Positions 1 through 15,040 of a stretch of 64,000 nt of DNA are shown here, piece by piece. The notes below the pieces were generated by a model. The model was not told the origin of the DNA. It did no database searches and saw only the letters and a list, made by a program, of their open reading frames with translations. Where the stretch lies: positions 64,001-128,000 of the IMG/VR virus record IMGVR_UViG_3300012039_000002; one strand, given 5' to 3'. Both the position numbers and the translations under genes were made by a program. The stretch is from a virus. Numbering within the stretch: the stretch's first letter is position 1; every line of letters begins with the position of its first letter.

Positions 1-1457
1 GCTTGAGCATAGACAGGGTTGAGGATAATATCGCCCTGAGGAAGTTCTTTATAGCCGTACTGGGCTCTAAGTTCATTAACTGTCTTGAGGTATTCGACTT
101 CCTGTCTTTCAAGAGCAATCTTCTGAGATTCAATAAGGTCAGTGTAGCCGTAGAACGAAAATTCAAATTGATCATCTGTAAGCGGACCAACGACGTATTT
201 ATTTATAGTGGCTTCAATGAATCTAAGCAACGGCACTAGGCCCTTGTCTTTCGAGAACTTAATTCTTTCAAGTGCTGAGCTATCATTAAGAGATCTTGAC
301 TGGCCAGAGACGCCACCCTTATTAGGGAAGTTGATTTCAACAGGGTCGATCTGATAAACACCGCAAATGACGTTTACAAGATATTCTAACCATCTACCGA
401 ATTCCATGTCCCTATTTGACTGGCCCAAGTTGATCCAATCAATTCCGCCTTCGGAAGCAATAATAGGAGTCTTCCAAGCATTGGCAACTCCGGTTATCTG
501 GGCATGCCAAGCTCTACGGAAAGCGTCGAGCTCTTCTCTTGGTACATTGGCTCCCTTAACGTTAAGAATGCCTTTTGGAGTAGATCCTTGAGTGAACCAC
601 CGCTTGTTATGCTCTTCACCATAGATCTGCGCAGAGATGTAGTTCAGAGCCATCTCTATTTCGGATATGCCATAACCATTGGCTTTTATGTCTGTTGTAG
701 CATTACGAATAGCAAACGCCATTTCATCATAAGCGTAGGCCGTATAGAGATTGCCGTCAATGAATTGGACATAATAGATGCCCTTTTCAATCTTAGTCTT
801 GGGATCGGCTAATCTTATGGTTCCCGCATCAACCGCGTAAATGGCCGAGGGCCTGCCGGTGTAAGGATCTTTTACAATTTCAAAACAAAGCTGGTCAAAC
901 GTCAGCGTGTCTCTTACTATCTTTCTGAGAAACGTTTGGAAGTTGTCTCTTTGAGGATCTCTTAATCTTGTAGTGGGCGTGCCGCAGTCGCCAATGAAAT
1001 TAGTTAAGTCCATGACTTTCTTGATTTCATCTGGCGTGAGAGAAGGCACTTTCAGATTGGGATTAGCCTGCTTTTGTAGATATTGAAACTTCTTGTTCTT
1101 AGGATAGACAGTATAGCCTATTCTATCGTTTGGCATTATGTATGGCGTAGCAAACATAGCGCACTGATTAATTCGAGTGTTGATGATGGAGGCTATGACG
1201 CCGTTTCTGTATGAGACTTTTCTTAGTAACTGATAGCTTAGAGCCCATGAAGCGTTCTTGGTTTTGAACTGTAGATAATCAAGAACAAATAGAGGGTCGT
1301 AAAACTTAGTTACTGGTGCCGGGTCTCTTGCATCTTGCTTGTCTAGAATCTTCCCACCTGAGAGCGCTACTTTTGTGGCTTTCTCTAGGGCTTCATCGAT
1401 CCCGCCGTTTACCATAGCGAGTTCTAGACTAACATCTGTTTTCTTTCTTCGTCCCAT
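1..1457 (-). CDS. Portal protein (SPO1/Twort-like), truncated at window start; missing from ORF track
   Basis: My translation from ATG at 1457 is open to the edge: MGRRKKTDVSLELAMVNGGIDEALEKA...IASIINTRINQ...FLRKIVRDTLTFDQLCFEI...NGYGISEIE...WFTQGSTPKGIL...DMEFGRWLEYLVNVICGVYQIDPVEINF...SKDKGLVPLL...TVNELRA. These are portal-type motifs, and the gene lies directly downstream of terL. Confidence 0.93.
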   Translation of the reverse strand, partial: MGRRKKTDVSLELAMVNGGIDEALEKATKVALSGGKILDKQDARDPAPVTKFYDPLFVLDYLQFKTKNASWALSYQLLRKVSYRNGVIASIINTRINQCAMFATPYIMPNDRIGYTVYPKNKKFQYLQKQANPNLKVPSLTPDEIKKVMDLTNFIGDCGTPTTRLRDPQRDNFQTFLRKIVRDTLTFDQLCFEIVKDPYTGRPSAIYAVDAGTIRLADPKTKIEKGIYYVQFIDGNLYTAYAYDEMAFAIRNATTDIKANGYGISEIEMALNYISAQIYGEEHNKRWFTQGSTPKGILNVKGANVPREELDAFRRAWHAQITGVANAWKTPIIASEGGIDWINLGQSNRDMEFGRWLEYLVNVICGVYQIDPVEINFPNKGGVSGQSRSLNDSSALERIKFSKDKGLVPLLRFIEATINKYVVGPLTDDQFEFSFYGYTDLIESQKIALERQEVEYLKTVNELRAQYGYKELPQGDIILNPVYAQ

Positions 1458-1461
1458 TTAA

Positions 1462-3246
1462 TTACTTCTCCGTTGTTATGTATTTCATCCAATCAATAGT
1501 CTCGGGATCACCCACCGTGATATTGTGATCTAGTGGGTGCAAATAGTTGTCATCGTATAACAATTTTTGTCTATCGTAAACTGAGGGCTTTTGCTGCGTA
1601 TCCGAAACACCAATCCCAAAGGCATCTTTATTAACAAATGAAAAGGACGAACTGTTTCTCTCATTCATTAAGACGAAACCGCCTACAGCAGCTGCAATTA
1701 TACTGTCATCGTGTTTTCCTTCGGAAGCCTGTGGTTTCCCGTTGGGACCGTAAACAAATGACAGCGCTTGATCGAGCCATGTCTTACTGTAAATTACTAG
1801 CATATTGTTGCGAAGTGCTTCTGCGGCGGTGTCTAAGATAAGAGGCCGAGTAACACTGCTTGATACAAAACCTGGCTTACCATCTTTAGCAAAGTAAACA
1901 CTCGGATATTTGTCAAGAATCTTAATTTGATCTTGTAAATAACCGTTTGTGGCCCAATAATTAAGCAGGTGCCCGTGGTTGTTTCTTTCTATAACTAGTT
2001 TTGGGAAGTTGTATTGAGCGCACATATGATACAACAACTTGTAGAATTTTGGCATAGTTAGCTTGTCGGCTATTTCAGCACAAAACTCCACAAATATTGG
2101 ATCTTTATTTAGTCGTAAGATGTATGCAGTTGAGTTGTCTGATTGCGGGTTGCCTTCTGCAGGGTCGGCACATGCTACGTACGTCTCTCCTTGTTTGAAT
2201 TCTTTGTAGATAGTAATCTTGTCGTCCATTTGTTTCTTAGACCAACCTGGCTCTATGATGACGCCTTGGTTGTTCTTCTTATCCCAAGTCTTGCCTTGTT
2301 CGTTCCATAAAATTATCGACTTGATGATTTTGGCATCAAAGAACGGTCTACCAGATGAGATAAAGCAAGTAGCATCATCTTCTGGATATTCTTGGACAAA
2401 CTTGTCTTTCAGCGAGGCTTGCTTAGATCTTCTCCAAGCTATTTGCTCGTGAGAAAGATGATGAACGTTGATCATTAATTTTTCATCATCGGTAAGAGTC
2501 TCAATGATATATTGTTCTTCCGATTTTTCGAGCGGGTAAAAATACTCTGGATGATCGAACCATCTATAGAAGTGAGGATACGGAATCTGATTTAGTTTTC
2601 TATCTAGAGCGCTAGTATTCTTAGCGTTAGTATAGTCTGTATGGAAGTGGTTGTAGCCATTAGCCGTCGTTTCATAGATGATGATACCACTCTTAGGCAC
2701 TGTTTCAAGCAACGAAGGCATTAATTCTTCAGGACGCTCCCAGAAAGCATATTCAGAAGCGTGCAACAAGTTAATAGTTGTGCCTCGGCCAAAGCCAACT
2801 GATCCAGCTGTACCAATGAAAATTTTGCTGCCGATGTCTTCAAACACAATTTCTCTCTTTGAAGAATATCTCTTAGCGGGTCTAATTTCATCGGGAAGCT
2901 TTTCATACATCAGCTTGGTGATTTCAAAGATTCTAGCAGTAGATTCGGCATCGTGAGCAATAATTGCAGCTGTAGTGTTCGGAACTAAAATACATTCCGT
3001 CAAGAACAAGGCGCATATTAATGTGGTGAAACCTAACTGGCGGGGCTTGAGGATGATATGCCTGTCTACACCTTCGTTGTTTAACTCGACGTACTTAGAA
3101 TAGAACATCTTCTGAATAGGGTTGAATACGAAAGGGACGATATAGCGGTCTTTGTCCTTAATACTTATAAATGTTTCTATAAAGTATTGATGGTCGGAGA
3201 GCGCTTTCTGAACTATCTCGTCGGGATTCAATGCGGCTTCGTTCAT
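1462..3246 (-). CDS. terL: Terminase large subunit
   Basis: ATPase motifs ILKPRQLGFTT, GRGTTINLLHASE and YETTANG; nuclease motifs ADPAEG...DNS, IERNNHG and KHDDSIIA. Confidence 0.97.
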   Translation of the reverse strand: MNEAALNPDEIVQKALSDHQYFIETFISIKDKDRYIVPFVFNPIQKMFYSKYVELNNEGVDRHIILKPRQLGFTTLICALFLTECILVPNTTAAIIAHDAESTARIFEITKLMYEKLPDEIRPAKRYSSKREIVFEDIGSKIFIGTAGSVGFGRGTTINLLHASEYAFWERPEELMPSLLETVPKSGIIIYETTANGYNHFHTDYTNAKNTSALDRKLNQIPYPHFYRWFDHPEYFYPLEKSEEQYIIETLTDDEKLMINVHHLSHEQIAWRRSKQASLKDKFVQEYPEDDATCFISSGRPFFDAKIIKSIILWNEQGKTWDKKNNQGVIIEPGWSKKQMDDKITIYKEFKQGETYVACADPAEGNPQSDNSTAYILRLNKDPIFVEFCAEIADKLTMPKFYKLLYHMCAQYNFPKLVIERNNHGHLLNYWATNGYLQDQIKILDKYPSVYFAKDGKPGFVSSSVTRPLILDTAAEALRNNMLVIYSKTWLDQALSFVYGPNGKPQASEGKHDDSIIAAAVGGFVLMNERNSSSFSFVNKDAFGIGVSDTQQKPSVYDRQKLLYDDNYLHPLDHNITVGDPETIDWMKYITTEK

Positions 3247-3620
3247 ATCAACATCAGCTTTCTACTTAATTTTACGGGATCATTAATCTCATGCTCCCAA
3301 ATTATGATGACTCTCCATCCACACCGCTCAAAACGACTAATTCGTTGCATCGTTTTGTACAGCGGCTCGTTTTTGTGCCAATAATCACCGTACACTTCAA
3401 CAACAAGTTTCCGAGTTTTATTAATGAAATCCGGTCTAAGGTTATCGATCTTGAAGGATCCGTCTCCGGTAAAAACAAAGGCTGAACCAAGAACTTGTTG
3501 TAGTTTCCGTTCCAAGCCGTTGGGCCCTGCTCTTCTAGGCCGTCTTTTGATTTGGCTGAGTTGACGTCTGGCTCGAAGAATCTTTTCAATGTCATACTCG
3601 TACCTATAATCTTTAACCAC
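3243..3620 (-). CDS. Vsr/DUF559-like (PD-(D/E)xK) endonuclease, probably a free-standing homing endonuclease
   Basis: RPDF...VVEVYGDYWH...GWRVIIIWEHEI pattern; overlaps both neighbouring genes. Confidence 0.8.
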   Translation of the reverse strand: MVKDYRYEYDIEKILRARRQLSQIKRRPRRAGPNGLERKLQQVLGSAFVFTGDGSFKIDNLRPDFINKTRKLVVEVYGDYWHKNEPLYKTMQRISRFERCGWRVIIIWEHEINDPVKLSRKLMLI

Positions 3621-4483: not shown

Positions 4484-5437
4484 ATGTCGGAAGAACTCAA
4501 TGACCTATTTTCTTTTTATATCGAAAACATCGAATTTAAAGAAGAACAGCTCGACAAAGCTTTCATTGATCAATACAAGCGCATCGACTTAGATAAGTCG
4601 ACTGGTCGAATTGTTGCAGGTTACGCATCAACACCCGATTTAGATTCTGACGGAGAGACTATTGTTCAGAAGGGCTTAGACATATCATATTATCAGAAGT
4701 CTGGCTGGCTGAATTATATGCATAACAACAATCCGTCCCATGTAATCGGTATTCCTATTGAGTCTTATATTGATAGCAAGGGTTTCTACACAAAAGCGAT
4801 GCTGCTTAATAACGATATGGCGAATGATGTTTGGAAACTCGAACAACAGCTCAAGTCTTTAGGCTATCCCCGTCACTTAGGTTTCTCGATAGAAGGCAAA
4901 GTAGTTGGCCGATCTGCCGTAAATAAATCAAAAATCATCAAGGCTAAAGTCACGAATGTTGCTATTACGCACATTCCCGTGAATACATTTGCGACGTTTG
5001 AAACAGTCTCGAAGTCTTTTGTTCCTCCGACTTACGACGAAGTGGTCGGCTATATAATGAAAGACCTCCCGTTAAAGAAAGACTTGGCGGCATTGAGTGC
5101 CTCACCCGGTCTCAATGCTGGTAGTAGTTTTGGAAGCGACAACTATACTGGTGGCGAAGTTTTGAGAACAGAGTCACTAGAAGGCGCAAATGCAAACGCT
5201 TACAAAGGGAAAGCAGTCACAGGGAACGATAGAACGTCCGAACAAGAACTTGATGAACGTCTCAACTCAGCCTACCGTAGTGCTCACAAATCCCATTCAG
5301 AATTAATAACTTTACTAAAGGCTGTCCACCCTGCAGCCTCTGAAAACTTGTTAGAAGAGATCACTAATCTCGTCTATAAGGCAAAGGGTATCGACAATTT
5401 TATCAAAATAATTAGCGAATCAGAGGTATTAAAGTAA
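4484..5437 (+). CDS. Prohead (capsid maturation) protease
   Basis: GYASTPDLDSDGETIVQKGLD, LNYMHNN, GFSIEG and VAITHIPVN (HK97/herpes-fold serine protease). Start moved to ATG 4484, which follows GAAGGTGG. Confidence 0.92.
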   Translation: MSEELNDLFSFYIENIEFKEEQLDKAFIDQYKRIDLDKSTGRIVAGYASTPDLDSDGETIVQKGLDISYYQKSGWLNYMHNNNPSHVIGIPIESYIDSKGFYTKAMLLNNDMANDVWKLEQQLKSLGYPRHLGFSIEGKVVGRSAVNKSKIIKAKVTNVAITHIPVNTFATFETVSKSFVPPTYDEVVGYIMKDLPLKKDLAALSASPGLNAGSSFGSDNYTGGEVLRTESLEGANANAYKGKAVTGNDRTSEQELDERLNSAYRSAHKSHSELITLLKAVHPAASENLLEEITNLVYKAKGIDNFIKIISESEVLK

Positions 5438-5488: not shown

Positions 5489-6451
5489 ATGTCTCTTATT
5501 AAAGTGATGGAAGATCTTATCGCAAAAGCCCAGGGTTATGATACCAAGCACACGGGCTCTGGCGGTCCTGCTGAGGCGGTAGCACACTCAGTGCAGGGCG
5601 CTCCTTCGGGCGATGAAAGCAAGAAGGAAAAGAATGCGGCCAATTCTGGAACGCATATCAAGAGTGGCGGCACGCCTGGTTCAAGCAATCGACCTGAAGG
5701 CGGGGAAGATTTCAAGGACGGCGGAGCTGCTGAAGACGAAATTCAGACGCCTAAGGGTTCTGGTGGAAGGGCTCCTCAAGCTCGTCCCGGCACAATTAAG
5801 CACGAAGGTGGTCAGGGTGGTGCAACACTCTCTGCCAAGTCTGAAGGCGAAGCCGATCTCGAAAAGGGATTCCCTCCTGCTGAAAAGAAGGATGACGACA
5901 AGGGCTCCGACGAAAAGGGCGAATCAAAGGAAGATGAAAAGAAGGAACACGAAGGCGGAGATGACAAGGACGACAAGGATGAAAAGTCCGAGAAGTCAGT
6001 CGAGTCCGGTGAAGTTCTTCTTGATATCGATGAGTTCGCAACAGAAATTACAAAGTCAGTAACCGAAAAGGTTCTTGCTTTTATGGAAGAAAAGTTCGGC
6101 GAAACAGTTCAGAAATCAAAGGATTCAGAATACATCGAAGCAGGGTTGGCTAAGTCAATTGCCGCCACGCTTGATAGAGTTGAAGAACTCGAAAAGGCAG
6201 TTGTTAATGTAGCTAACGCTATGAATATTAGAAAGTCACTTCTCAAGTCATCTGACAACATCAAGGGAATTGACAACCCATCTCTTAACAAGACTTCTTT
6301 GACTAAGAGTGAGGTTTCTAGTAAGCTGCTCGACATGCAAATGTCCGGCCAGTTCGGTGTAGACACAAATATGGTTCTCAAATTTGACGGCACGGGCGAT
6401 TACTCAGTACTGCCCCCAGTAGTCAAAAGCAAACTTGGCATAGAAGAATAA
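5489..6451 (+). CDS. Scaffolding protein
   Basis: Acidic, low-complexity protein with a coiled coil and many KS/KA sites, lying between protease and capsid; GGAGG RBS. Confidence 0.75.
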   Translation: MSLIKVMEDLIAKAQGYDTKHTGSGGPAEAVAHSVQGAPSGDESKKEKNAANSGTHIKSGGTPGSSNRPEGGEDFKDGGAAEDEIQTPKGSGGRAPQARPGTIKHEGGQGGATLSAKSEGEADLEKGFPPAEKKDDDKGSDEKGESKEDEKKEHEGGDDKDDKDEKSEKSVESGEVLLDIDEFATEITKSVTEKVLAFMEEKFGETVQKSKDSEYIEAGLAKSIAATLDRVEELEKAVVNVANAMNIRKSLLKSSDNIKGIDNPSLNKTSLTKSEVSSKLLDMQMSGQFGVDTNMVLKFDGTGDYSVLPPVVKSKLGIEE

Positions 6452-6478: not shown

Positions 6479-7942
6479 ATGGATGAAGTACAGGGTTTTG
6501 GATTAGGATCCATGCAGGATGTCCAGGCCATTAACAAGGCCGTTGACTCGTTGTATAACGCGGGCACGGGAACCGGTTTGGCAGCTGGAGCTTCTTTTGG
6601 TTCCGACAATTATGGTAGCACTGGTGCGCAGTCCCTCAGAGTTGAATCTCTGGACTCGTCACTCAAGGTTATCACGTTCACTGATAAGCACATCAACTTC
6701 TGGAAAGACATTCCGAAGTCACCTGCTTATTCAACGGTTGAAGAATACAACCAGTTAACCTCTTACGGCTCGCAGACGGGCGGATTTGTTTCTGAAGGCG
6801 AATTGCCATATCAGACAAACTCCGACTACGCCAGACGAGCAGCTCTGGTCAAGTTCGTTGGAACGACCAGATCAGTAAGCCACCCATTAACCTTGGTCCG
6901 TACGATGGTTCCTGATGTTATTGCGCAGGAAAACTCAAATGGTATCATGTGGATGCTCCGCCAGATTGAAAATTCTCTCTTCTGGGGCAACGATGTGGGT
7001 CTTACGGGTGAATACGTGGAATGGGCGGGCCTTGATAAGCTTCTTGGCGTAGGTCCAAACACGACTTCCGGTACAGGCGCTGGTAACACCTTCGACCTCC
7101 GCGGAACAACTTTCTCCTCAACTCCTTTCACGACAATCGTCAATGACTTGGCACAGACAGTAGTTGATAACTTCGGTTTCCCAACTGACATTTATCTTCC
7201 ATTCCCTGTCCTTGCAAAGATCAACGAAGAGTTCGCTGGAACCGCTGCACAGAGAGTAATTCTCCCAACAGCCTCTGGTAATACTCAGGTCAACATTAAC
7301 ATTGACGGCCTTATGACTCAGGCTGGTCGAGTTAATCTCAAGCCAACCTTCTTCTTGCAGAAGACAAGAGTAGTTCCTGGTGCCGGTGACGGCGCTGCTA
7401 AGGTTCTTAAGTCTGGCGCTCTTGCGGTCGGAGGTACTTCTGTCACTATGTCAGCTGCAGGTACTCCTACAACTGGCTACTCAGTGGCTGCTGGTGACTA
7501 TGAAGGATCAGTCACTTTCAGAAACAAGTATGGTGAATCCGGCTCCGTCGCTCAGGGCGGTGGTACAATCACCACAAGCGGAACTAACACTCTTAGATTC
7601 GCTATCACAGCTCCTCCAACCGATGCAGAATTCGTAGACCTCTTCATCACTCAGGTCGACGACGCTGCTGGCGTGAAGTATTGGGTTCAGACAATGGCCC
7701 TTACTACAATAGCTGCAGGCCCAACTAACTACGATTACAATGGTATTCGTATGCCTAACACCTATACCTGCTTCATCGGCCAGATGACTCCTGACGTTCT
7801 TACCTTCCGTCAGTTGGCTCCGCTGGTAAAGATGGATCTAGCAACGATCGCTCCGGCTTACAAGTGGATGATCCTGCTCTACGGTGTTCCTGTTCTCTTC
7901 GCTCCTTTGAAGTGGACCAGAGTTATTAACGTAAAGTATTAA
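6479..7942 (+). CDS. Major capsid protein (SPO1/Twort-type)
   Basis: SLRVESLDSSLKVITF, FWKDIPKSPAYSTVEEYNQ, IENSLFWGN, FGFPTDIYLP and QLAPLVKMDLA; AGGAGG RBS; strong terminator follows. Confidence 0.93.
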   Translation: MDEVQGFGLGSMQDVQAINKAVDSLYNAGTGTGLAAGASFGSDNYGSTGAQSLRVESLDSSLKVITFTDKHINFWKDIPKSPAYSTVEEYNQLTSYGSQTGGFVSEGELPYQTNSDYARRAALVKFVGTTRSVSHPLTLVRTMVPDVIAQENSNGIMWMLRQIENSLFWGNDVGLTGEYVEWAGLDKLLGVGPNTTSGTGAGNTFDLRGTTFSSTPFTTIVNDLAQTVVDNFGFPTDIYLPFPVLAKINEEFAGTAAQRVILPTASGNTQVNINIDGLMTQAGRVNLKPTFFLQKTRVVPGAGDGAAKVLKSGALAVGGTSVTMSAAGTPTTGYSVAAGDYEGSVTFRNKYGESGSVAQGGGTITTSGTNTLRFAITAPPTDAEFVDLFITQVDDAAGVKYWVQTMALTTIAAGPTNYDYNGIRMPNTYTCFIGQMTPDVLTFRQLAPLVKMDLATIAPAYKWMILLYGVPVLFAPLKWTRVINVKY

Positions 7943-10025: not shown

Positions 10026-10774
10026 TGAAGATACAGAACCTGACTCCAGATTGGCTATTAGAAACATATCTTTATAGAATTCCCATTGAGTTCGATAATG
10101 ATAGACTTTCTAATTCAGCTATTCAGTTTTATATCGACTCTGCAATTAGCAGAGCTGAAATGTTACTCGATATCTCGATTAGAAAAAAGAGCATCGAAGC
10201 TGAAACGTATGACTATCGTTTGGAAGAATGGATGGCTGGTTTTGGATTTGTTGCGCTTAATACGCGTCCTGCTATTCGTGTGACTAAAATGTCATTGAAT
10301 GTTATCACTAGTGAAATAGAGATTCCAGCGGAATGGATTCAACTTAAGAAGAAATCAGCACAAGTCAATTTGATTCCTTATTACGGTATGCTGGCTTCGC
10401 AGAATATTGCAAATCAAATATTGATATTTATGCCGATGTTGTCTGCTACTAGTTATGTGCCACAGATTTTGCGAATTTCATATGAAGCTGGCTATAACGA
10501 TACTGATGACGTTCCGGATCTATTAGCTCAGCTCATTGGTATGAACGCATCAATCGGAGTAATGAATGTTCTTGGTGAAATTGCTCTTGGAGGCCAAGCT
10601 GCTTTGGCTGGTTACTCTATTGGAATTGATGGATTATCTCAATCTGTCTCTACGACGCTGTCAGCAGAAAATCATGCTTACTCGGCTAGAGTTAGAGGTT
10701 ATGAAAGAGAACAAGTTGAAATAGTTAAGGCTTTACGCCAGTACTACTACGGTCTACACCTAACGAGCTGCTAA
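10025..10774 (+). CDS. Head-tail adaptor/neck protein
   Basis: FYIDSAISRAEMLLDISI...YEAGY...GYSIGIDGLSQS...YSARV, typical of SPO1-like neck proteins. Confidence 0.8.
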   Translation: MKIQNLTPDWLLETYLYRIPIEFDNDRLSNSAIQFYIDSAISRAEMLLDISIRKKSIEAETYDYRLEEWMAGFGFVALNTRPAIRVTKMSLNVITSEIEIPAEWIQLKKKSAQVNLIPYYGMLASQNIANQILIFMPMLSATSYVPQILRISYEAGYNDTDDVPDLLAQLIGMNASIGVMNVLGEIALGGQAALAGYSIGIDGLSQSVSTTLSAENHAYSARVRGYEREQVEIVKALRQYYYGLHLTSC

Positions 10775-11580
10775 TGACGACACCAACATATCCATCTGCA
10801 GCACGAGGCGGAGCTAGAGTTCCCTTTACGCCGCTAAAAATTGACTATAATACAAAAGGCGCAATAGATCTTATCAAGAAGTACGGCAGTAGATTTGATT
10901 GGTATAGTGCTCTTGTATGCCCCTGCACGCTAAAAAGTCAGCAGGTAGAGCTAAAATTCAGACAGCTTTCTTGCGGTCTATGCAATGGAACTGGTTGGAC
11001 GTTTGTATTGAATAGCGAAATAAGAATCGTCCCTTCTTCGGCTAGAAGAGAAGAACAGACTCTTACATATAGAGTTGCTGGGCAAGGCTTGATGTCTAAC
11101 ATTTTTGTTAATTTAACATGTGAACCACAGTACAAGGTCAATATTAGAGACAGGGTAGTCTTTAAGGAGTCTGTAACTCATAGAAGTGAAGTCGTATTCA
11201 TGGATGTTGAGAAGACTTCGTATAAGCTCATTTCGCCTGCTATAGATCTTTTGCATGTAATAGATGAAACTGGGAAACACTACAATTCAACTAGCTATTA
11301 TACGGACGATCAAGGCGTCGTAATAGAAAGTCGAGACATAAGCGTTAATGCCGATGGAGAGATTTATTGGGTTGAAGGCAAGAGAAAGCCGCCTAATGGG
11401 ATGGCCTTCACTGTACTGTATAGCTTTTTCCCGGCTTACGACGTTATAACAGCCGCGCATGAAATTAGAGGGTTTGTGGCTGGCAAGCTTGCTGAAGAAG
11501 GCGGAGTGCAGGCTTGGGAAGACTTACCAAGATTTTTTACGGGAAAATTAGTAATTCCCGATGCGTATCTGTTTGGATAA
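10774..11580 (+). CDS. Neck/head-closure protein with CPC and CxxCxGxG motifs
   Basis: ALVCPC...CGLCNGTGW...RDRVV; located right after the adaptor. Confidence 0.7.
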   Translation: MTTPTYPSAARGGARVPFTPLKIDYNTKGAIDLIKKYGSRFDWYSALVCPCTLKSQQVELKFRQLSCGLCNGTGWTFVLNSEIRIVPSSARREEQTLTYRVAGQGLMSNIFVNLTCEPQYKVNIRDRVVFKESVTHRSEVVFMDVEKTSYKLISPAIDLLHVIDETGKHYNSTSYYTDDQGVVIESRDISVNADGEIYWVEGKRKPPNGMAFTVLYSFFPAYDVITAAHEIRGFVAGKLAEEGGVQAWEDLPRFFTGKLVIPDAYLFG

Positions 11581-11604: not shown

Positions 11605-13344
11605 ATGGAGAATAGACGAGTAATGCCGGGACTATATAAGGGCTATCCTGAAAGTCTTAAGAAAAAGGACAGCGAGGAAAGGGATCACACAGATCCTATG
11701 CACAAGCCTGAAGCGGCAGAAAAGGCTAGAGAAAAGGCCGAGGCTGCTTCTGACGAAAAGAAGGAAAAGTCCTATTCTCAAGATGATGTTACCGTTGCTT
11801 ATCTCCTTAAGGGCAGATCAAACGCTCAGGAGCTGTTCGACTTAGCAAAGGCGCCCGTTATCGGTGGGTCAATTTATGCTGGCAGAACGATGCCAAAGGA
11901 TCTTTCGCCTTCTGAGGGCAAAGTTATCGCAGCTCAGACAGCAAAAAAGCCGGGCGGTCTTACTGGTGGGGCTTCAGAGGAATTGAAGTCTCGTGCAGCT
12001 AAAGAAAAGCAGACGATGATGGACACAGCACAGGCTAGACTTAGAGCTCAAACAGCTGCAGTCAAGTCAGAAGAACCATATTCATTGGATTTCTCAAAGT
12101 CTATTCTTGATAAGATGGGCTTAACAAAAGCTAAGAAAGAAACTAACGAATCAGGCGAGGAATTTCAAGATGGATCAGAAGACACTATTGGCGCAGAAGG
12201 ACATGCGGCCACTGCTAGACCTATTGCGCATGAGGGCGGCGGTCAAGGGCCAGACCACCCTGGTACAAAAACTAAAAGAGCATCTCAAGAAGATGGAGAT
12301 CTCCAAAAATCCGACAACCTAACTGACAATCTTCCAGAAGAATTTGAGGAAGGCATTGAAGACGCTGACACGATTCCTAATGAGGATGAAAAAGCGGCAG
12401 TTGAAGGTAAGAAGTCTTTTACTTACGACGAAATGAATGCTGCTATTCTTCTCAAGTCTTCTCCATTTGCTCAAGAGATCGTTGACTTGATTAAGGCTGC
12501 TAGAGATGAAGAAGCAGCTAGGGATTACAAATATAACGCTTGGCGGAAGAGATCGGATGTTCGTGCAGCCAAATGGAAGTCAGGAATAGACGCCACCAAG
12601 AGAGCTGTCCAGCACTTCAAGAACAAGGCTGATCTGGCTGAGGAAGACGAAGCTGGAAAGTCTGAAGGCGAAGGCGATCTTGAAAAGTCTCACACAAGTA
12701 GAGTTGGAAACGCTTCTCCAACAAAGGGCGCGGCCGGAAGACATTTCGCCCGTGAGGCACGTGAAGACCAGAAGAAGGAGGATGCAAAGTATCGCATTCC
12801 TCGACATGCCTCTGTTTTAGGTTCTGGGGGAGAAGTGACTAACGTTAGTGACAAGGTGATTCGTGTTCGTCCAGCTCAAGGTGGCACAGTAGGATCAGAA
12901 GCTAAGATTAAATCGGTCTGTGAATTGAACAACATTCTTGAGAAGGCGGTAGAAAAAAAGCCCAAATCAAGAGGCCCAGGTATAGATTACATATCTGAAA
13001 GCAAAATGAACAAGCCTAACGTTAAAGTAACAGGCGAAAAGATGCATGGTCGAGAGATTCCTGCTAATGCTGCTCATGAAAAAGAGCTTAAGGAAGCGTC
13101 TTTACATACTGAACTAGATTCACTTCTTGAGAAGGCTAGACGCCCATCGTGGGACCCTAAGCCCAAGCATGTCGATGAAGACAAAGAAGCGTTCCATGCC
13201 GACTCCTTATCGGGAGATGCGGGATCAAGAGAGCATGAATACAAGCGTAAGCAAGAGTTAGCGGACAAATGGCAGGCTAAAAAGAATTCTCCAGAATTCA
13301 GAACAGCCTCTAAGATAAAGGATGCCGACGAAGGCGACGATTAA
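11605..13344 (+). CDS. Charged low-complexity protein; candidate internal head polyprotein A
   Basis: K/E-rich with repeated LxK[S/A/G] motifs; shares segments with the scaffold. Confidence 0.6.
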   Translation: MENRRVMPGLYKGYPESLKKKDSEERDHTDPMHKPEAAEKAREKAEAASDEKKEKSYSQDDVTVAYLLKGRSNAQELFDLAKAPVIGGSIYAGRTMPKDLSPSEGKVIAAQTAKKPGGLTGGASEELKSRAAKEKQTMMDTAQARLRAQTAAVKSEEPYSLDFSKSILDKMGLTKAKKETNESGEEFQDGSEDTIGAEGHAATARPIAHEGGGQGPDHPGTKTKRASQEDGDLQKSDNLTDNLPEEFEEGIEDADTIPNEDEKAAVEGKKSFTYDEMNAAILLKSSPFAQEIVDLIKAARDEEAARDYKYNAWRKRSDVRAAKWKSGIDATKRAVQHFKNKADLAEEDEAGKSEGEGDLEKSHTSRVGNASPTKGAAGRHFAREAREDQKKEDAKYRIPRHASVLGSGGEVTNVSDKVIRVRPAQGGTVGSEAKIKSVCELNNILEKAVEKKPKSRGPGIDYISESKMNKPNVKVTGEKMHGREIPANAAHEKELKEASLHTELDSLLEKARRPSWDPKPKHVDEDKEAFHADSLSGDAGSREHEYKRKQELADKWQAKKNSPEFRTASKIKDADEGDD

Positions 13345-13345
13345 T

Positions 13346-15040
13346 ATGGATCGACAGGAAATTGACGAACTAGTGGCCAAATCTACTCCCGAGTGGGCTG
13401 CTAAGAAAGTTGGCAGTGCTATTGGTAAGTTTGCTAAAGAAAACGTTCATAGAGTCCCTAAGGAGCGGAAAAACTTAGAACAGCCGCCACATAAGCCAAA
13501 GGATCCCGTTATACGACGCATGGCTGAGAGAGCACAGAAGGTCGGAGAGCACATGAGGAGCCATTATAAAATGAAGCCCGGTGAATTTGAAAAATATCAG
13601 GGAATTGCTGACGCTGAAGCGCGTCGAACTTCTAAGTCCATTGACGAACAAACTTCAGAATATTTTGCTAAGTGTCATTCGCATGTTCTTGACGGGATGA
13701 CTGAAGACGAACTAAAGAATAAGAAGAAAGAAGCGCCCAAGGCTGACGGCCACGTCTTTGGTAGCGATCCGAATGACAAGCGTGGCTCTGATATGGAAAT
13801 GGTGAAAAAGAAAGAGCCTGATGCTTACAAGTCTCTTGATGAAAGAACAGCTGATCTTCACAAGGCTGTTACGGGCAATAAGAAAGTCAAAACTGGCGAT
13901 GTTGATCAGCACGACGATCATGTTCGTTCTACGGAGTCGTCAAAGATTGAGGGTGGCAAAAGAGTAGGCCCAGGCACCGATAGATTTACTCATACGTCTC
14001 ACGATCCAGAAAAGGGCGAAGTAAAGATTACAACGTCTAATTGGAATAAGAAAACTCAAAAGTATGAACATGGAGAAACTACTCATCCGACACACGTACG
14101 CATGGGCCGCGCAACCGAAGCTAATCAAGATTTGCCTAAGAAGTCCTTGATTGCTACAGTGGATGAATTGCTCGAAAAGTCAGGCGTACGTCAGGTTCAT
14201 AGAGTTAAGGATCAAGGCGCAGCTAGTAAAGTAAAGAAGATTGATCCTAAGACTCTTTCACACGACCGCCAGCAACAGCTTCTTAGCGGTTCAGCTGCTA
14301 AAGTAAAGGCTTATCGTGAAGAGGGCTACGTTCCAGATAAGGACGACACGCCTGAGGTTAGAGAGCAGGACAGAGATCCTTCGAACAAGTCTCTAACATC
14401 TACGCTTGATGATTTGCTCAAGTCGATGTACGATATAGTGCATCACAAGCGATTCAGCAAGATGGATCCTGATGCTGGGATAAACAAAAAGAAGGAAGAA
14501 GCTATGGAAAGAGGCCCTTCAGACAAGGGCGACTACAAGCCCGGCTCTAAGACTTTCAACAACCCGCAGGATTCTCAGGATCCTAAGATTCGTTATAAGT
14601 CTCTTGATGATAGAACATGCGATTTAGTGAAGTCGATCGACACGCAGCGGGCTAAAGAAATCAGGGACGCTGCTTTGACCGTTAGACTTTCACGAGAAGG
14701 AATATCGAGTGCTGCTTCTAAGATGGATGTTAAGCCAGAGGATGTTCATCGTGTCGAAACAAAACTTACAGGACTTCACGCTGCTAGAGAATCTTCCCTC
14801 AAGTCAGTTTGCGATATGTGGATTGGCGAAACGTCGATGATAAAAGGCCATACGATTCTTCCGGGCAATGCTGTGGGAGATTTAGCAAAAGACGAACGCA
14901 AGCCGGGTGGTAGAACTCCAACTCTTCAGCAAACGGACGAGAAACAGAGAGAAGTAGAAACAGGCAGTATTTATCGCAGACAAAAAGCCGAAAAGAGAGT
15001 TAATGCTCTGAAAGAGGAACAGGCTTTCGGTAGCAAATAG
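13346..15040 (+). CDS. Charged protein with repeated KS..DLxK[S/A] spacers; candidate internal head polyprotein B
   Basis: Start probably ATG 13346, just after the previous stop; six spacer copies are visible. Confidence 0.6.
   Translation: MDRQEIDELVAKSTPEWAAKKVGSAIGKFAKENVHRVPKERKNLEQPPHKPKDPVIRRMAERAQKVGEHMRSHYKMKPGEFEKYQGIADAEARRTSKSIDEQTSEYFAKCHSHVLDGMTEDELKNKKKEAPKADGHVFGSDPNDKRGSDMEMVKKKEPDAYKSLDERTADLHKAVTGNKKVKTGDVDQHDDHVRSTESSKIEGGKRVGPGTDRFTHTSHDPEKGEVKITTSNWNKKTQKYEHGETTHPTHVRMGRATEANQDLPKKSLIATVDELLEKSGVRQVHRVKDQGAASKVKKIDPKTLSHDRQQQLLSGSAAKVKAYREEGYVPDKDDTPEVREQDRDPSNKSLTSTLDDLLKSMYDIVHHKRFSKMDPDAGINKKKEEAMERGPSDKGDYKPGSKTFNNPQDSQDPKIRYKSLDDRTCDLVKSIDTQRAKEIRDAALTVRLSREGISSAASKMDVKPEDVHRVETKLTGLHAARESSLKSVCDMWIGETSMIKGHTILPGNAVGDLAKDERKPGGRTPTLQQTDEKQREVETGSIYRRQKAEKRVNALKEEQAFGSK

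Follow-up and report, generated by a model that had tools for sequence, protein, structure and literature searches.

Two adjacent genes of an uncultured SPO1-like phage encode repetitive proteins probably cut by the phage's own prohead protease

The window (the whole stretch of DNA analysed, 64,000 nucleotides) comes from an IMG/VR contig of an uncultured SPO1-like phage, which carries two adjacent genes encoding proteins of the same kind, here called ORF A and ORF B:

11605 to 13344, plus strand: ORF A, 579 aa, with 11 hydrophobic-x-K-[SAG] sites
13346 to 15040, plus strand: ORF B, 564 aa counted from the ATG at 13346, in an open frame that begins at 13322

The ATG at 13346, from which the original prediction had also read the gene, is most likely the real start of ORF B because the stop codon of ORF A occupies 13342-13344 and all homologues start at the equivalent methionine. 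A scan for promoters and terminators around the two genes gave no signal above chance. ORF B consists of an N-terminal leader and six KS-x(9-12)-K[S/A/C/G] units, found exactly where they had been predicted (nucleotides 13634, 13829, 14141, 14387, 14597 and 14801, or residues 105, 170, 274, 356, 426 and 494 when counted from the opening of the frame at 13322), with the motif IDELVAKS at residues 14-21:

13346 to 13381, plus strand: N-terminal leader MDRQEIDELVAK, then S; 12 aa, matrix (PWM) score 21.2
13634 to 13675, plus strand: unit KSIDEQTSEYFAK, then C; predicted helix 107-119
13829 to 13867, plus strand: unit KSLDERTADLHK, then A; predicted helix 172-184
14141 to 14182, plus strand: unit KSLIATVDELLEK, then S; predicted helix 270-287, K286 invariant in 16 homologues
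14387 to 14425, plus strand: unit KSLTSTLDDLLK, then S; predicted helix 358-373, K356 and S357 invariant
14597 to 14635, plus strand: unit KSLDDRTCDLVK, then S; predicted helix 428-439, with K426, S427, D429, C433, L435 and K437 invariant
14801 to 14848, plus strand: looser unit KSVCDMWIGETSMIK, then G; W500 invariant

The units end in D-hydrophobic-x-K, after which comes S, A or G, and four of the five predicted unit helices begin right after the serine. Neighbouring sites are separated by segments of 64-105 aa in which K, R, D, E and H are abundant, within a protein of 12.9% lysine, 3.8% histidine and pI 9.2. Shuffle statistics excluded chance or low complexity as the source of the units, since the counts in shuffles fell far below those observed: ORF B contains five copies of KS.{9,12}K[SAC], where 0.38 are expected from 20,000 shuffles (P = 1e-4), and six of a stricter form in which both P3 and the position following KS must be hydrophobic, where 0.02 are expected. 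Of all ORFs with 60 aa or more in the 163-kb genome, just ORF B (five) and ORF A (three) had more than one match to KS.{9,12}K[SAC]. Recent DNA duplication was likewise ruled out as the origin of the units, the YKSLD(D/E)RT pair being the only one alike at this level (92% over 25 nt). The two proteins were also rejected as full-length paralogues, their BLASTP matches being motif-sized only.

The endings of the units recur in the head genes of the same window (the arrow marks the predicted cut):

1370 to 1457, minus strand: portal N-terminus, with GGIDEALEK↓A at residue 26, the top matrix match outside ORF A and ORF B
4484 to 5437, plus strand: prohead serine protease (Pfam Peptidase_S78, E = 2.4e-5; PHROG 1028, E = 1e-56)
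5489 to 6451, plus strand: scaffold protein; its N-terminal leader ends in AK↓A, and it has 10 sites where 2.3 were expected
6479 to 7942, plus strand: major capsid protein, with a predicted maturation site K20↓A21 (nucleotides 6536-6541)

When the capsid proteins are aligned, K20↓A21 falls opposite the K24↓S25 site of phage K. The 439-aa PDB chain 9row_B is equal to the 463-aa chain 5lii_P without its 24 N-terminal residues, and the mature Kayvirus capsid protein therefore appears to begin at S25; N-terminal processing in A511 and K, which we take to occur, provides a second basis for the phage K site. The protease, for which no sequence match was obtained in the PDB, shares its catalytic residues His80 and Ser135 with the proteases of phages K and YungSlug, and contains eight hydrophobic-x-K-[SAG] sites against 1.7 expected; D-hydrophobic-x-K↓S sites in the propeptide and after the catalytic domain are invariant in all three enzymes. 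From the one structural inference offered by the PDB chain lengths, together with this conservation, we infer the cleavage rule D-hydrophobic-x-K↓S/A/G. Sites of this capsid type, with D or another residue at P4, number 7 in ORF B and 11 in ORF A, and the proposal that the units of ORF B carry a head-protease site is well supported in silico, the same signal standing in capsid, scaffold, portal and protease. The ORF B leader, kept in 15 of 16 aligned homologues, resembles that of the scaffold (MSLIKVMEDLIAK, then A) and is a candidate targeting and cleavage signal. The likeness of ORF B to the scaffold lies in this leader and in the sites, while in ORF A a single module, residues 170-235, matches residues 58-126 of the scaffold (E = 2e-4).

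The site regular expression was picked after inspection of the sequence and later validated on two reference phages; a looser expression proved too unspecific, and matrix and shuffle tests were used instead. When a matrix built solely from columns of the ORF B-family alignment was scanned over the 230 other ORFs, the N-termini of portal and scaffold ranked first, and five matches reached at least 11 bits against 1.0 in shuffled sequences. In a density test, in which hydrophobic-x-K-[SAG] counts were compared with 2000 within-protein shuffles for 232 ORFs, none of the shuffles reached the observed count in just four: the protease, the scaffold, ORF A and one ORF of 168 aa. ORF B itself was marginal (6 against 2.7 expected, p = 0.05), a result that counts against a role in the head core. 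Applied to the 49 ORFs of phage K and the 28 of YungSlug, the same test placed scaffold and protease at ranks 1 and 2. Across 62 proteins of the family (513 sites, median 8 per protein), P4, a position left unconstrained by the search, was Asp in 43% of sites, a 5.4-fold enrichment, and P2 was Glu in 35%.

Where within a unit the cut would fall can be read from the same positions. The original prediction had each unit dock, as it conceivably may, on the scaffold and then be excised as a spacer by cuts at both ends. The double cut we do not uphold, as neither the hydrophobic P3 nor the Asp P4 of all anchored sites is present at the leading K-S; this K-S is more readily read as capping the N-terminus of the helix, and the cut would then follow the C-terminal Lys. 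In several homologues Asp, not a small residue, follows the invariant Lys of the KSLDERTCDL.K unit, and some units may therefore escape cutting there. The invariance of the leading K-S is left unexplained by the cleavage rule and counts against the head-core reading, as does the location of both genes among neck and tail genes, away from protease and scaffold. Both observations would suit proteins that are not substrates at all but neck- or tail-associated assembly factors, which would use the repeated helix to bind or oligomerise and whose Lys-Ser/Ala endings would be incidental: the leading K-S stands outside the cleavage rule, and at all loci the genes are flanked by neck genes and by the tail sheath gene. 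Such an explanation would, however, have to account for a C-terminal Lys that is invariant and followed by a small residue, for an enrichment of Asp at P4 and Leu at P3 identical to that of the capsid and protease sites, for matrix matches that cross to the portal and scaffold N-termini, and for a pattern density that picks scaffold and protease, known substrates in other phages, out of two reference phages. We regard it as very improbable.

ORF B is predicted to be without a global fold. Its AlphaFold2 model has a mean pLDDT of 52 and a pTM of 0.19, with isolated helices at every unit, and the folding as a single domain that would have spoken against a chain of separate peptides did not appear. 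Neither ORF A nor ORF B matched a family in Pfam or PHROGs, and ten longer relatives yielded no Pfam family and no peptidase domain; for ORF B, nothing was found by megablast or tblastn in 50,697 phage records, by a PDB profile search based on its family alignment or in the ESM Atlas. Fused forms of the two proteins longer than 1000 aa were sought and none was found, which is weak evidence. About 60 metagenomic relatives retain the sites, with modules gained, lost, reordered and swapped between ORF A- and ORF B-type proteins, bearing out the expectation of conserved spacers with exchanged payloads. The payloads had been described as unrelated to one another: they are indeed variable and rich in K, H, R and D, but the notion of unrelated filler is not supported, as some match the sites in conservation, such as module B6, which is 77-88% identical in eight relatives and 34-70% in others. 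In eight viral loci the position of the genes is constant, with a neck gene on one side and a pre-sheath gene on the other; these flanking genes are 56-92% identical, whereas ORF A and ORF B can be aligned only patchwise, at 31-67%.

Taken together, we consider it probable, from sequence comparison, that ORF A and ORF B are accessory prohead-core proteins of an SPO1-type head that are cut by the phage's own S78-type protease. Each protein would be a chain of small, mostly disordered modules, every one of them closing with an amphipathic helix of 10-13 residues. The Ser of the leading KS would often cap this helix at its N-terminus, and the last turn of the helix, D-hydrophobic-x-K with S, A or G behind it, would serve as the cutting signal of the prohead protease. 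The scaffold-like leader might carry the proteins into the assembling prohead, or they might be drawn in by binding to scaffold or capsid protein, and the active protease would then cut after each motif Lys; both the incorporation and the cuts are steps that we infer. In ORF B the predicted cuts fall after K12, K109, K173, K278, K359, K429 and K500, counted from the Met at 13346. They would release the 12-aa leader together with seven peptides measuring 64-105 aa (some 7-12 kDa, with net charges between -2 and +8), and ORF A would be divided into about twelve pieces.

What would become of these products divides the head-core reading into two accounts. In one, which we hold to be doubtful, the proteins help to build or fill a large T=16-type prohead and are then degraded by the protease and expelled before packaging, like gp22, gp67 and gp68 of T4, which are broken into small escaping peptides (PMC9958956). 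[quoted passage not shown] However, a canonical scaffold is already encoded at 5489-6451, the two reference Herelleviridae examined make the same type of head without such genes, and the strong conservation of some modules would be unexpected in filler. The predicted pieces of 64-105 aa also exceed typical scaffold debris; those predicted for the C-terminal half of the window's own scaffold are mostly of 4-40 aa.

In the other account, which we offer tentatively, the same cuts are made and the peptides stay in the DNA-filled head, to be ejected as DNA-condensing, DNA-protecting or anti-defence effectors, so that each gene would resemble a prohormone precursor, with phages exchanging its cassettes. 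A cassette would comprise a payload and the N-capped helix bearing its cut site, and the conserved disordered modules would act as short linear anti-defence effectors or DNA-organising peptides. The fragments of ORF B are mostly basic (six of seven with net charges of +1 to +8 and pI 7.9-9.8), and injection with the DNA is plausible for these peptides; basic internal proteins of T4 are likewise kept once their leader is removed (PMC9958956). Disordered modules such as B6 are strongly conserved, and invariant Cys and Trp residues occur elsewhere, from which it can be argued that the modules have specific partners rather than serving as filler. The shuffling of cassettes, and an evolution far faster than that of the flanking structural genes, are as seen in conflict genes. 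In contrast, effector and DNA-binding domains were absent from the Pfam, PHROGs, PDB profile and Atlas searches, quick mosaic evolution is equally typical of disordered scaffold regions, and the predicted pieces of ORF A are mixed in charge, several being very acidic, down to a net charge of -11. That mosaic precursors supply peptides of 7-12 kDa to be packaged and injected, with cassettes traded between genes and phages under host pressure, is thus a possibility to which we give limited credence.

Among known systems, the Herelleviridae (SPO1-, K/812- and A511-type) have a prohead protease of the same family as the window phage, with the same D-hydrophobic-x-K↓S/A rule. Phages K and YungSlug, however, lack genes like ORF A and ORF B in the interval from the neck genes to the sheath gene; the two are additional, twice as large as the scaffold, and mosaic. 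Neither a protease cleavage-site map for Herelleviridae nor polyproteins of this kind were found in the published literature searched. More widely, an HK97-fold capsid is matured by an assemblin-like serine protease at hydrophobic-x-small/basic↓Ser (Lys↓Ser in HK97, V/L-x-A↓S in herpesviruses), but the HK97 gp5 delta domain and the herpesvirus assemblin substrates receive one or a few cuts, in contrast to the multi-module precursors proposed here. In phages of the phiKZ and SPN3US type the cleavage consensus is S/A/G-x-E. The motif of the window phage ends instead in Lys and its protease belongs to S78/PHROG 1028, whereas the phiKZ/SPN3US type is defined by S/A/G-x-E together with a T4 gp21-like protease. 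Many head-internal proteins of these giant phages are cut by the protease at a short consensus and their products packaged and ejected, as described in two reports (PMC10052503, PMC7411985); the substrates are mostly large folded proteins that lose a single propeptide, and are not homologous to ORF A or ORF B. Polyvalent proteins (Iyer et al. 2017) are multi-domain enzymatic or effector chains proposed to be delivered together with DNA and processed by their own MPTase peptidase (PMC5512222). These proteins share with ORF A and ORF B a multi-module build and a late or virion gene context, but ORF A and ORF B have no Pfam domain and no zincin-like MPTase, and their putative processing enzyme is the head protease.

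A further parallel is found in T4, in which the prohead-core proteins gp22, gp67 and gp68 and the internal proteins IPI-III and Alt, which bear a capsid-targeting sequence, are cut by the prohead protease at I/L-x-E, some products being lost and others kept and injected (PMC9958956, PMC12991175). The T4 core and internal proteins are, like ORF A and ORF B, not part of the shell, have a hydrophobic residue at P3 of the cut site and carry an N-terminal leader ending in a site. The two sets are nevertheless unrelated in sequence, belong with proteases of different clades and differ at P1 (Lys in place of Glu); the sites of ORF A and ORF B also lie, unlike those of T4, at the end of N-capped helices. 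T4 internal proteins lose just the leader and stay folded, whereas the 7-12 sites of ORF A and ORF B would release many modules of similar size from a disordered chain. ORF B, with at least seven sites and no global fold (pTM 0.19, mean pLDDT 52), does not conform to the T4 type, in which a single cut leaves one folded protein.

ORF A and ORF B are thus probably protease-processed head-core or internal proteins. Processing of this kind would be invisible to ordinary tryptic proteomics because the cuts follow Lys, and this blindness may explain why it stayed unnoticed. If the cuts are real, a simple cleavage rule, D-hydrophobic-x-K↓S/A/G, would apply to the large SPO1/K/A511 group, some members of which are used in therapy and biocontrol. 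Head-internal proteins would then be predictable from sequence, the density test having picked out scaffold and protease in two reference phages without prior knowledge of them, and the roughly 60 mosaic proteins would constitute a previously undescribed family whose members may be packaged and injected.

The window spans bases 64001-128000 of an IMG/VR virus record of 163,355 bp with direct terminal repeats. Its head and contractile-tail genes are of the SPO1/Herelleviridae type, and among them ORF B and its upstream neighbour ORF A lie between a neck gene and a 215-aa gene preceding the sheath gene.

Genes of the head and tail module (window coordinates)
Large terminase
Portal
4484-5437: prohead protease, S78-type (Pfam E = 2.4e-5; PHROG 1028 E = 1e-56)
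5489-6451: scaffold-like protein
6479-7942: major capsid protein (PHROG 752; ~41% identity to Bacillus phage counterparts; SPO1 Gp6.1, PDB 9vel, E = 5e-90)
10774-11580: neck gene flanking ORF A (PHROG 1004)
11605-13344, plus strand: ORF A, 579 aa
13346-15040, plus strand: ORF B, 564 aa
Neck proteins, tail sheath and tail tube

The order neck, ORF A-like, ORF B-like, 215-aa gene, sheath and tube recurs in eight of eight viral loci, as far as each locus extends. Across these loci identity was 70-76% for the sheath, 82-92% for the tube and 56-64% for the neck genes, and ORFs A and B gave only patchy alignments of 31-67%. Nothing comparable occupies this position in phage K or YungSlug. One related locus, L007, holds three multi-site genes (724, 342 and 436 aa) in place of two, and a GIY-YIG/NUMOD3 homing endonuclease gene (L007:8354-8941; Pfam E = 3e-10 and 4e-13) is inserted in the block immediately before the ORF B-like gene. 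The window also has, between the genes for the large terminase and for a 203-aa protein, a small DUF559/Vsr-like endonuclease gene (3243-3620, minus strand; Pfam DUF559 E = 3e-5).

The frame of ORF B is open from 13322 to 15040, and every homologue starts at the Met whose codon is at 13346, one base past the stop of the upstream gene, so the start originally proposed is correct; the six units (KS, 9-12 residues, then K followed by S, A, C or G) listed in the original prediction were likewise all recovered at the nucleotides assigned to them. The pattern KS.{9,12}K[SAC] occurred five times in ORF B against 0.38 in shuffles (n = 20,000; P = 1e-4), and a stricter pattern six times against 0.02; genome-wide, no ORF of 60 aa or longer apart from B and A matched the former more than once. 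Only one pair of units was alike at the DNA level, and selection therefore acts on the peptide.

An AlphaFold2 model of ORF B from a 16-sequence alignment was of low confidence, with no global fold (mean pLDDT 52, pTM 0.19), and placed isolated helices on every unit (residues 9-20, 107-119, 172-184, 270-287, 358-373 and 428-439). The predicted helix begins directly after the Ser of 'KS' in four units out of five, which fits N-capping by a Ser (S-x-x-E/D type), and the last turn of the unit reads D/E-hydrophobic-x-K, followed by S, A, G or C. The sole predicted beta structure, a three-strand meander (13982-14089, residues 221-256; pLDDT 61-68), falls in module B4, one of the stretches between predicted cut sites, whose C-terminal part bears a weak likeness, by eye only, to ORF A module A8 (…IPANAAHEKELK…). 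Among the Cys and Trp residues C118, C433, C497 and W500 (numbered in the 13322-15040 frame), C433 in the KSLDERTCDL unit and W500 in KSVCDxW are invariant across 16 homologues, and the Cys of …KCHSHV… and that of KSVCDxW are kept in most, not all. A role in cleavage does not explain these residues, which could serve in metal binding or disulfides within the head.

Several comparisons bear on the C-terminal Lys of the unit, which we read as a putative head-protease site under a rule resting on one structural inference and on conservation. A position matrix drawn solely from two columns of the ORF B-family alignment, scanned over ~230 other ORFs of the genome, gave five matches scoring 11 bits or more, where shuffles gave 1.0; top-ranked were the portal N-terminus (GGIDEALEK↓A, residue 26) and the scaffold N-terminus (MSLIKVMEDLIAK↓A), with further matches in the scaffold and the protease tail. 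The large terminase N-terminus (3204-3246, minus strand) begins MNEAALNPDEIVQK↓A, a weak match (8.8 bits) that is probably due to chance, because the terminase is not a head-internal protein. The window capsid protein reads ..DVQAINK20↓A21, with a Lys that is invariant relative to YungSlug and phage K and aligns to phage K K24↓S25 (...QFQEDVVK24 S25FQTGYG). The Kayvirus capsid chains in the PDB differ in length (9row_B, 439 residues; 5lii_P, 463), a single query residue aligning with positions 15 and 39, respectively; from this difference and the phage K sequence we infer that the mature chain begins at S25. The catalytic His and Ser are common to the proteases of all three phages (the window phage, YungSlug and K), as are two invariant K↓S sites marking domain borders: one close to the N-terminus (D-hydrophobic-x-K↓S), the other following the catalytic domain (K↓SF). 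At these anchored sites P3 was hydrophobic in 9/9 and P4 was Asp in 5/9, including all three protease N-terminal sites. Past K↓SF, the protease extension copies the capsid N-arm (…GS(S/D)NY…LR(T/V)ESL(E/D)…; 5060-5190 versus 6530-6660); the echo recurs in YungSlug, a Bacillus phage, and in the Staphylococcus phage K, making it a family trait, and is probably a means of building the protease into the shell.

Excision of each spacer by a cut at both ends, as originally proposed, would accord with the invariance of the leading K-S (K356/S357, K426/S427), but P3 and P4 of the leading K-S (P3 = T, A, P, S, R, S) break the rule true of every anchored site. We therefore think it more likely that each unit is cut once, at its C-terminal Lys, and that the Ser caps the helix, although K437 is followed by Asp in several homologues. 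The predicted cuts would release from ORF B a 12-aa leader and seven pieces (64-105 aa), of which six carry a net positive charge; from ORF A, twelve pieces of mixed charge; and from the scaffold, many short pieces across its C-terminal half.

Counts of hydrophobic-x-K-[SAG] per ORF (n = 232), each set against 2000 shuffled versions of that protein, were reached by no shuffle in the protease (8 vs 1.7), the scaffold (10 vs 2.3), ORF A (11 vs 3.1) and a 168-aa ORF (10 vs 1.2); ORF B had 6 vs 2.7 (p = 0.05). The 168-aa ORF (131123-131629 of the whole record, window-scale 67123-67629), 3.1 kb past the window end, may be another heavily processed head protein. Although the pattern was picked after the sequences had been viewed, we argue that it is real, given the control phages and the unconstrained positions: scaffold and protease took ranks 1 and 2 over 40 kb of phage K and again over 25 kb of YungSlug, and at 513 sites in 62 family proteins (median 8 per protein; 1.69 per 100 aa vs 0.47 genome-wide) P4 was Asp in 43% (5.4-fold enriched) and P2 Glu in 35%, giving a core of D-L-E-K↓S/G/A.

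No relative of the family was found in Pfam, PHROG, PDB or the Atlas, nor any match in 50,697 phage records; metagenome protein searches returned ~20 relatives of ORF B and ~30 of ORF A. In the alignment, invariant columns cluster at the units, alongside gain or loss of whole modules. When both window proteins were split at the predicted sites and every piece was searched against all relatives, A7 and A8 appeared inside ORF B-type proteins (P0004, P0005, P0010, P0012 and others), A3 followed A4 in most ORF A-type proteins and preceded it in the window, B8 was duplicated in P0016, and B3 turned up in proteins of 600-900 aa with quite different surroundings. The payloads are thus swapped as the original prediction held, but they are not arbitrary filler, since a number of modules show strong conservation, B6 for example being 77-88% identical in eight relatives. 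The longer relatives carried no Pfam domain, and the searches returned no fused forms above 1000 aa, a weak indication. Homology links residues 170-235 of ORF A with residues 58-126 of the scaffold, and the two stretches end at the same DL(E/Q)K site.

Retention of the peptides in the head and their injection, the fate first suggested, would suit basic pieces of 7-12 kDa, the conservation of some modules as sequence and fast evolution by cassettes. The kinship of ORF A with the scaffold, a site density equal to the scaffold's and the lack of a recognisable effector domain would suit sacrificial core material that exits the head, as do T4 gp22, gp67 and gp68 (PMC9958956); if both proteins are indeed cut in the prohead, the two fates are about equally probable.

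Polyvalent proteins sensu Iyer et al. were rejected as a description of ORFs A and B, as they require enzymatic domains and an MPTase peptidase (PMC5512222). The open-access literature held no description of a Lys-specific site rule or of such multi-site precursors in SPO1-like phages. The same logic is found in the core and internal proteins of T4, where it takes the form of a leader and an I/L-x-E site (PMC9958956, PMC12991175), and in the processed head proteins of giant phages (PMC10052503, PMC7411985). On this evidence, all of it in silico, the best-supported reading, and one we consider fairly probable, is that the prohead core takes up both proteins and the prohead protease cleaves them into many pieces.
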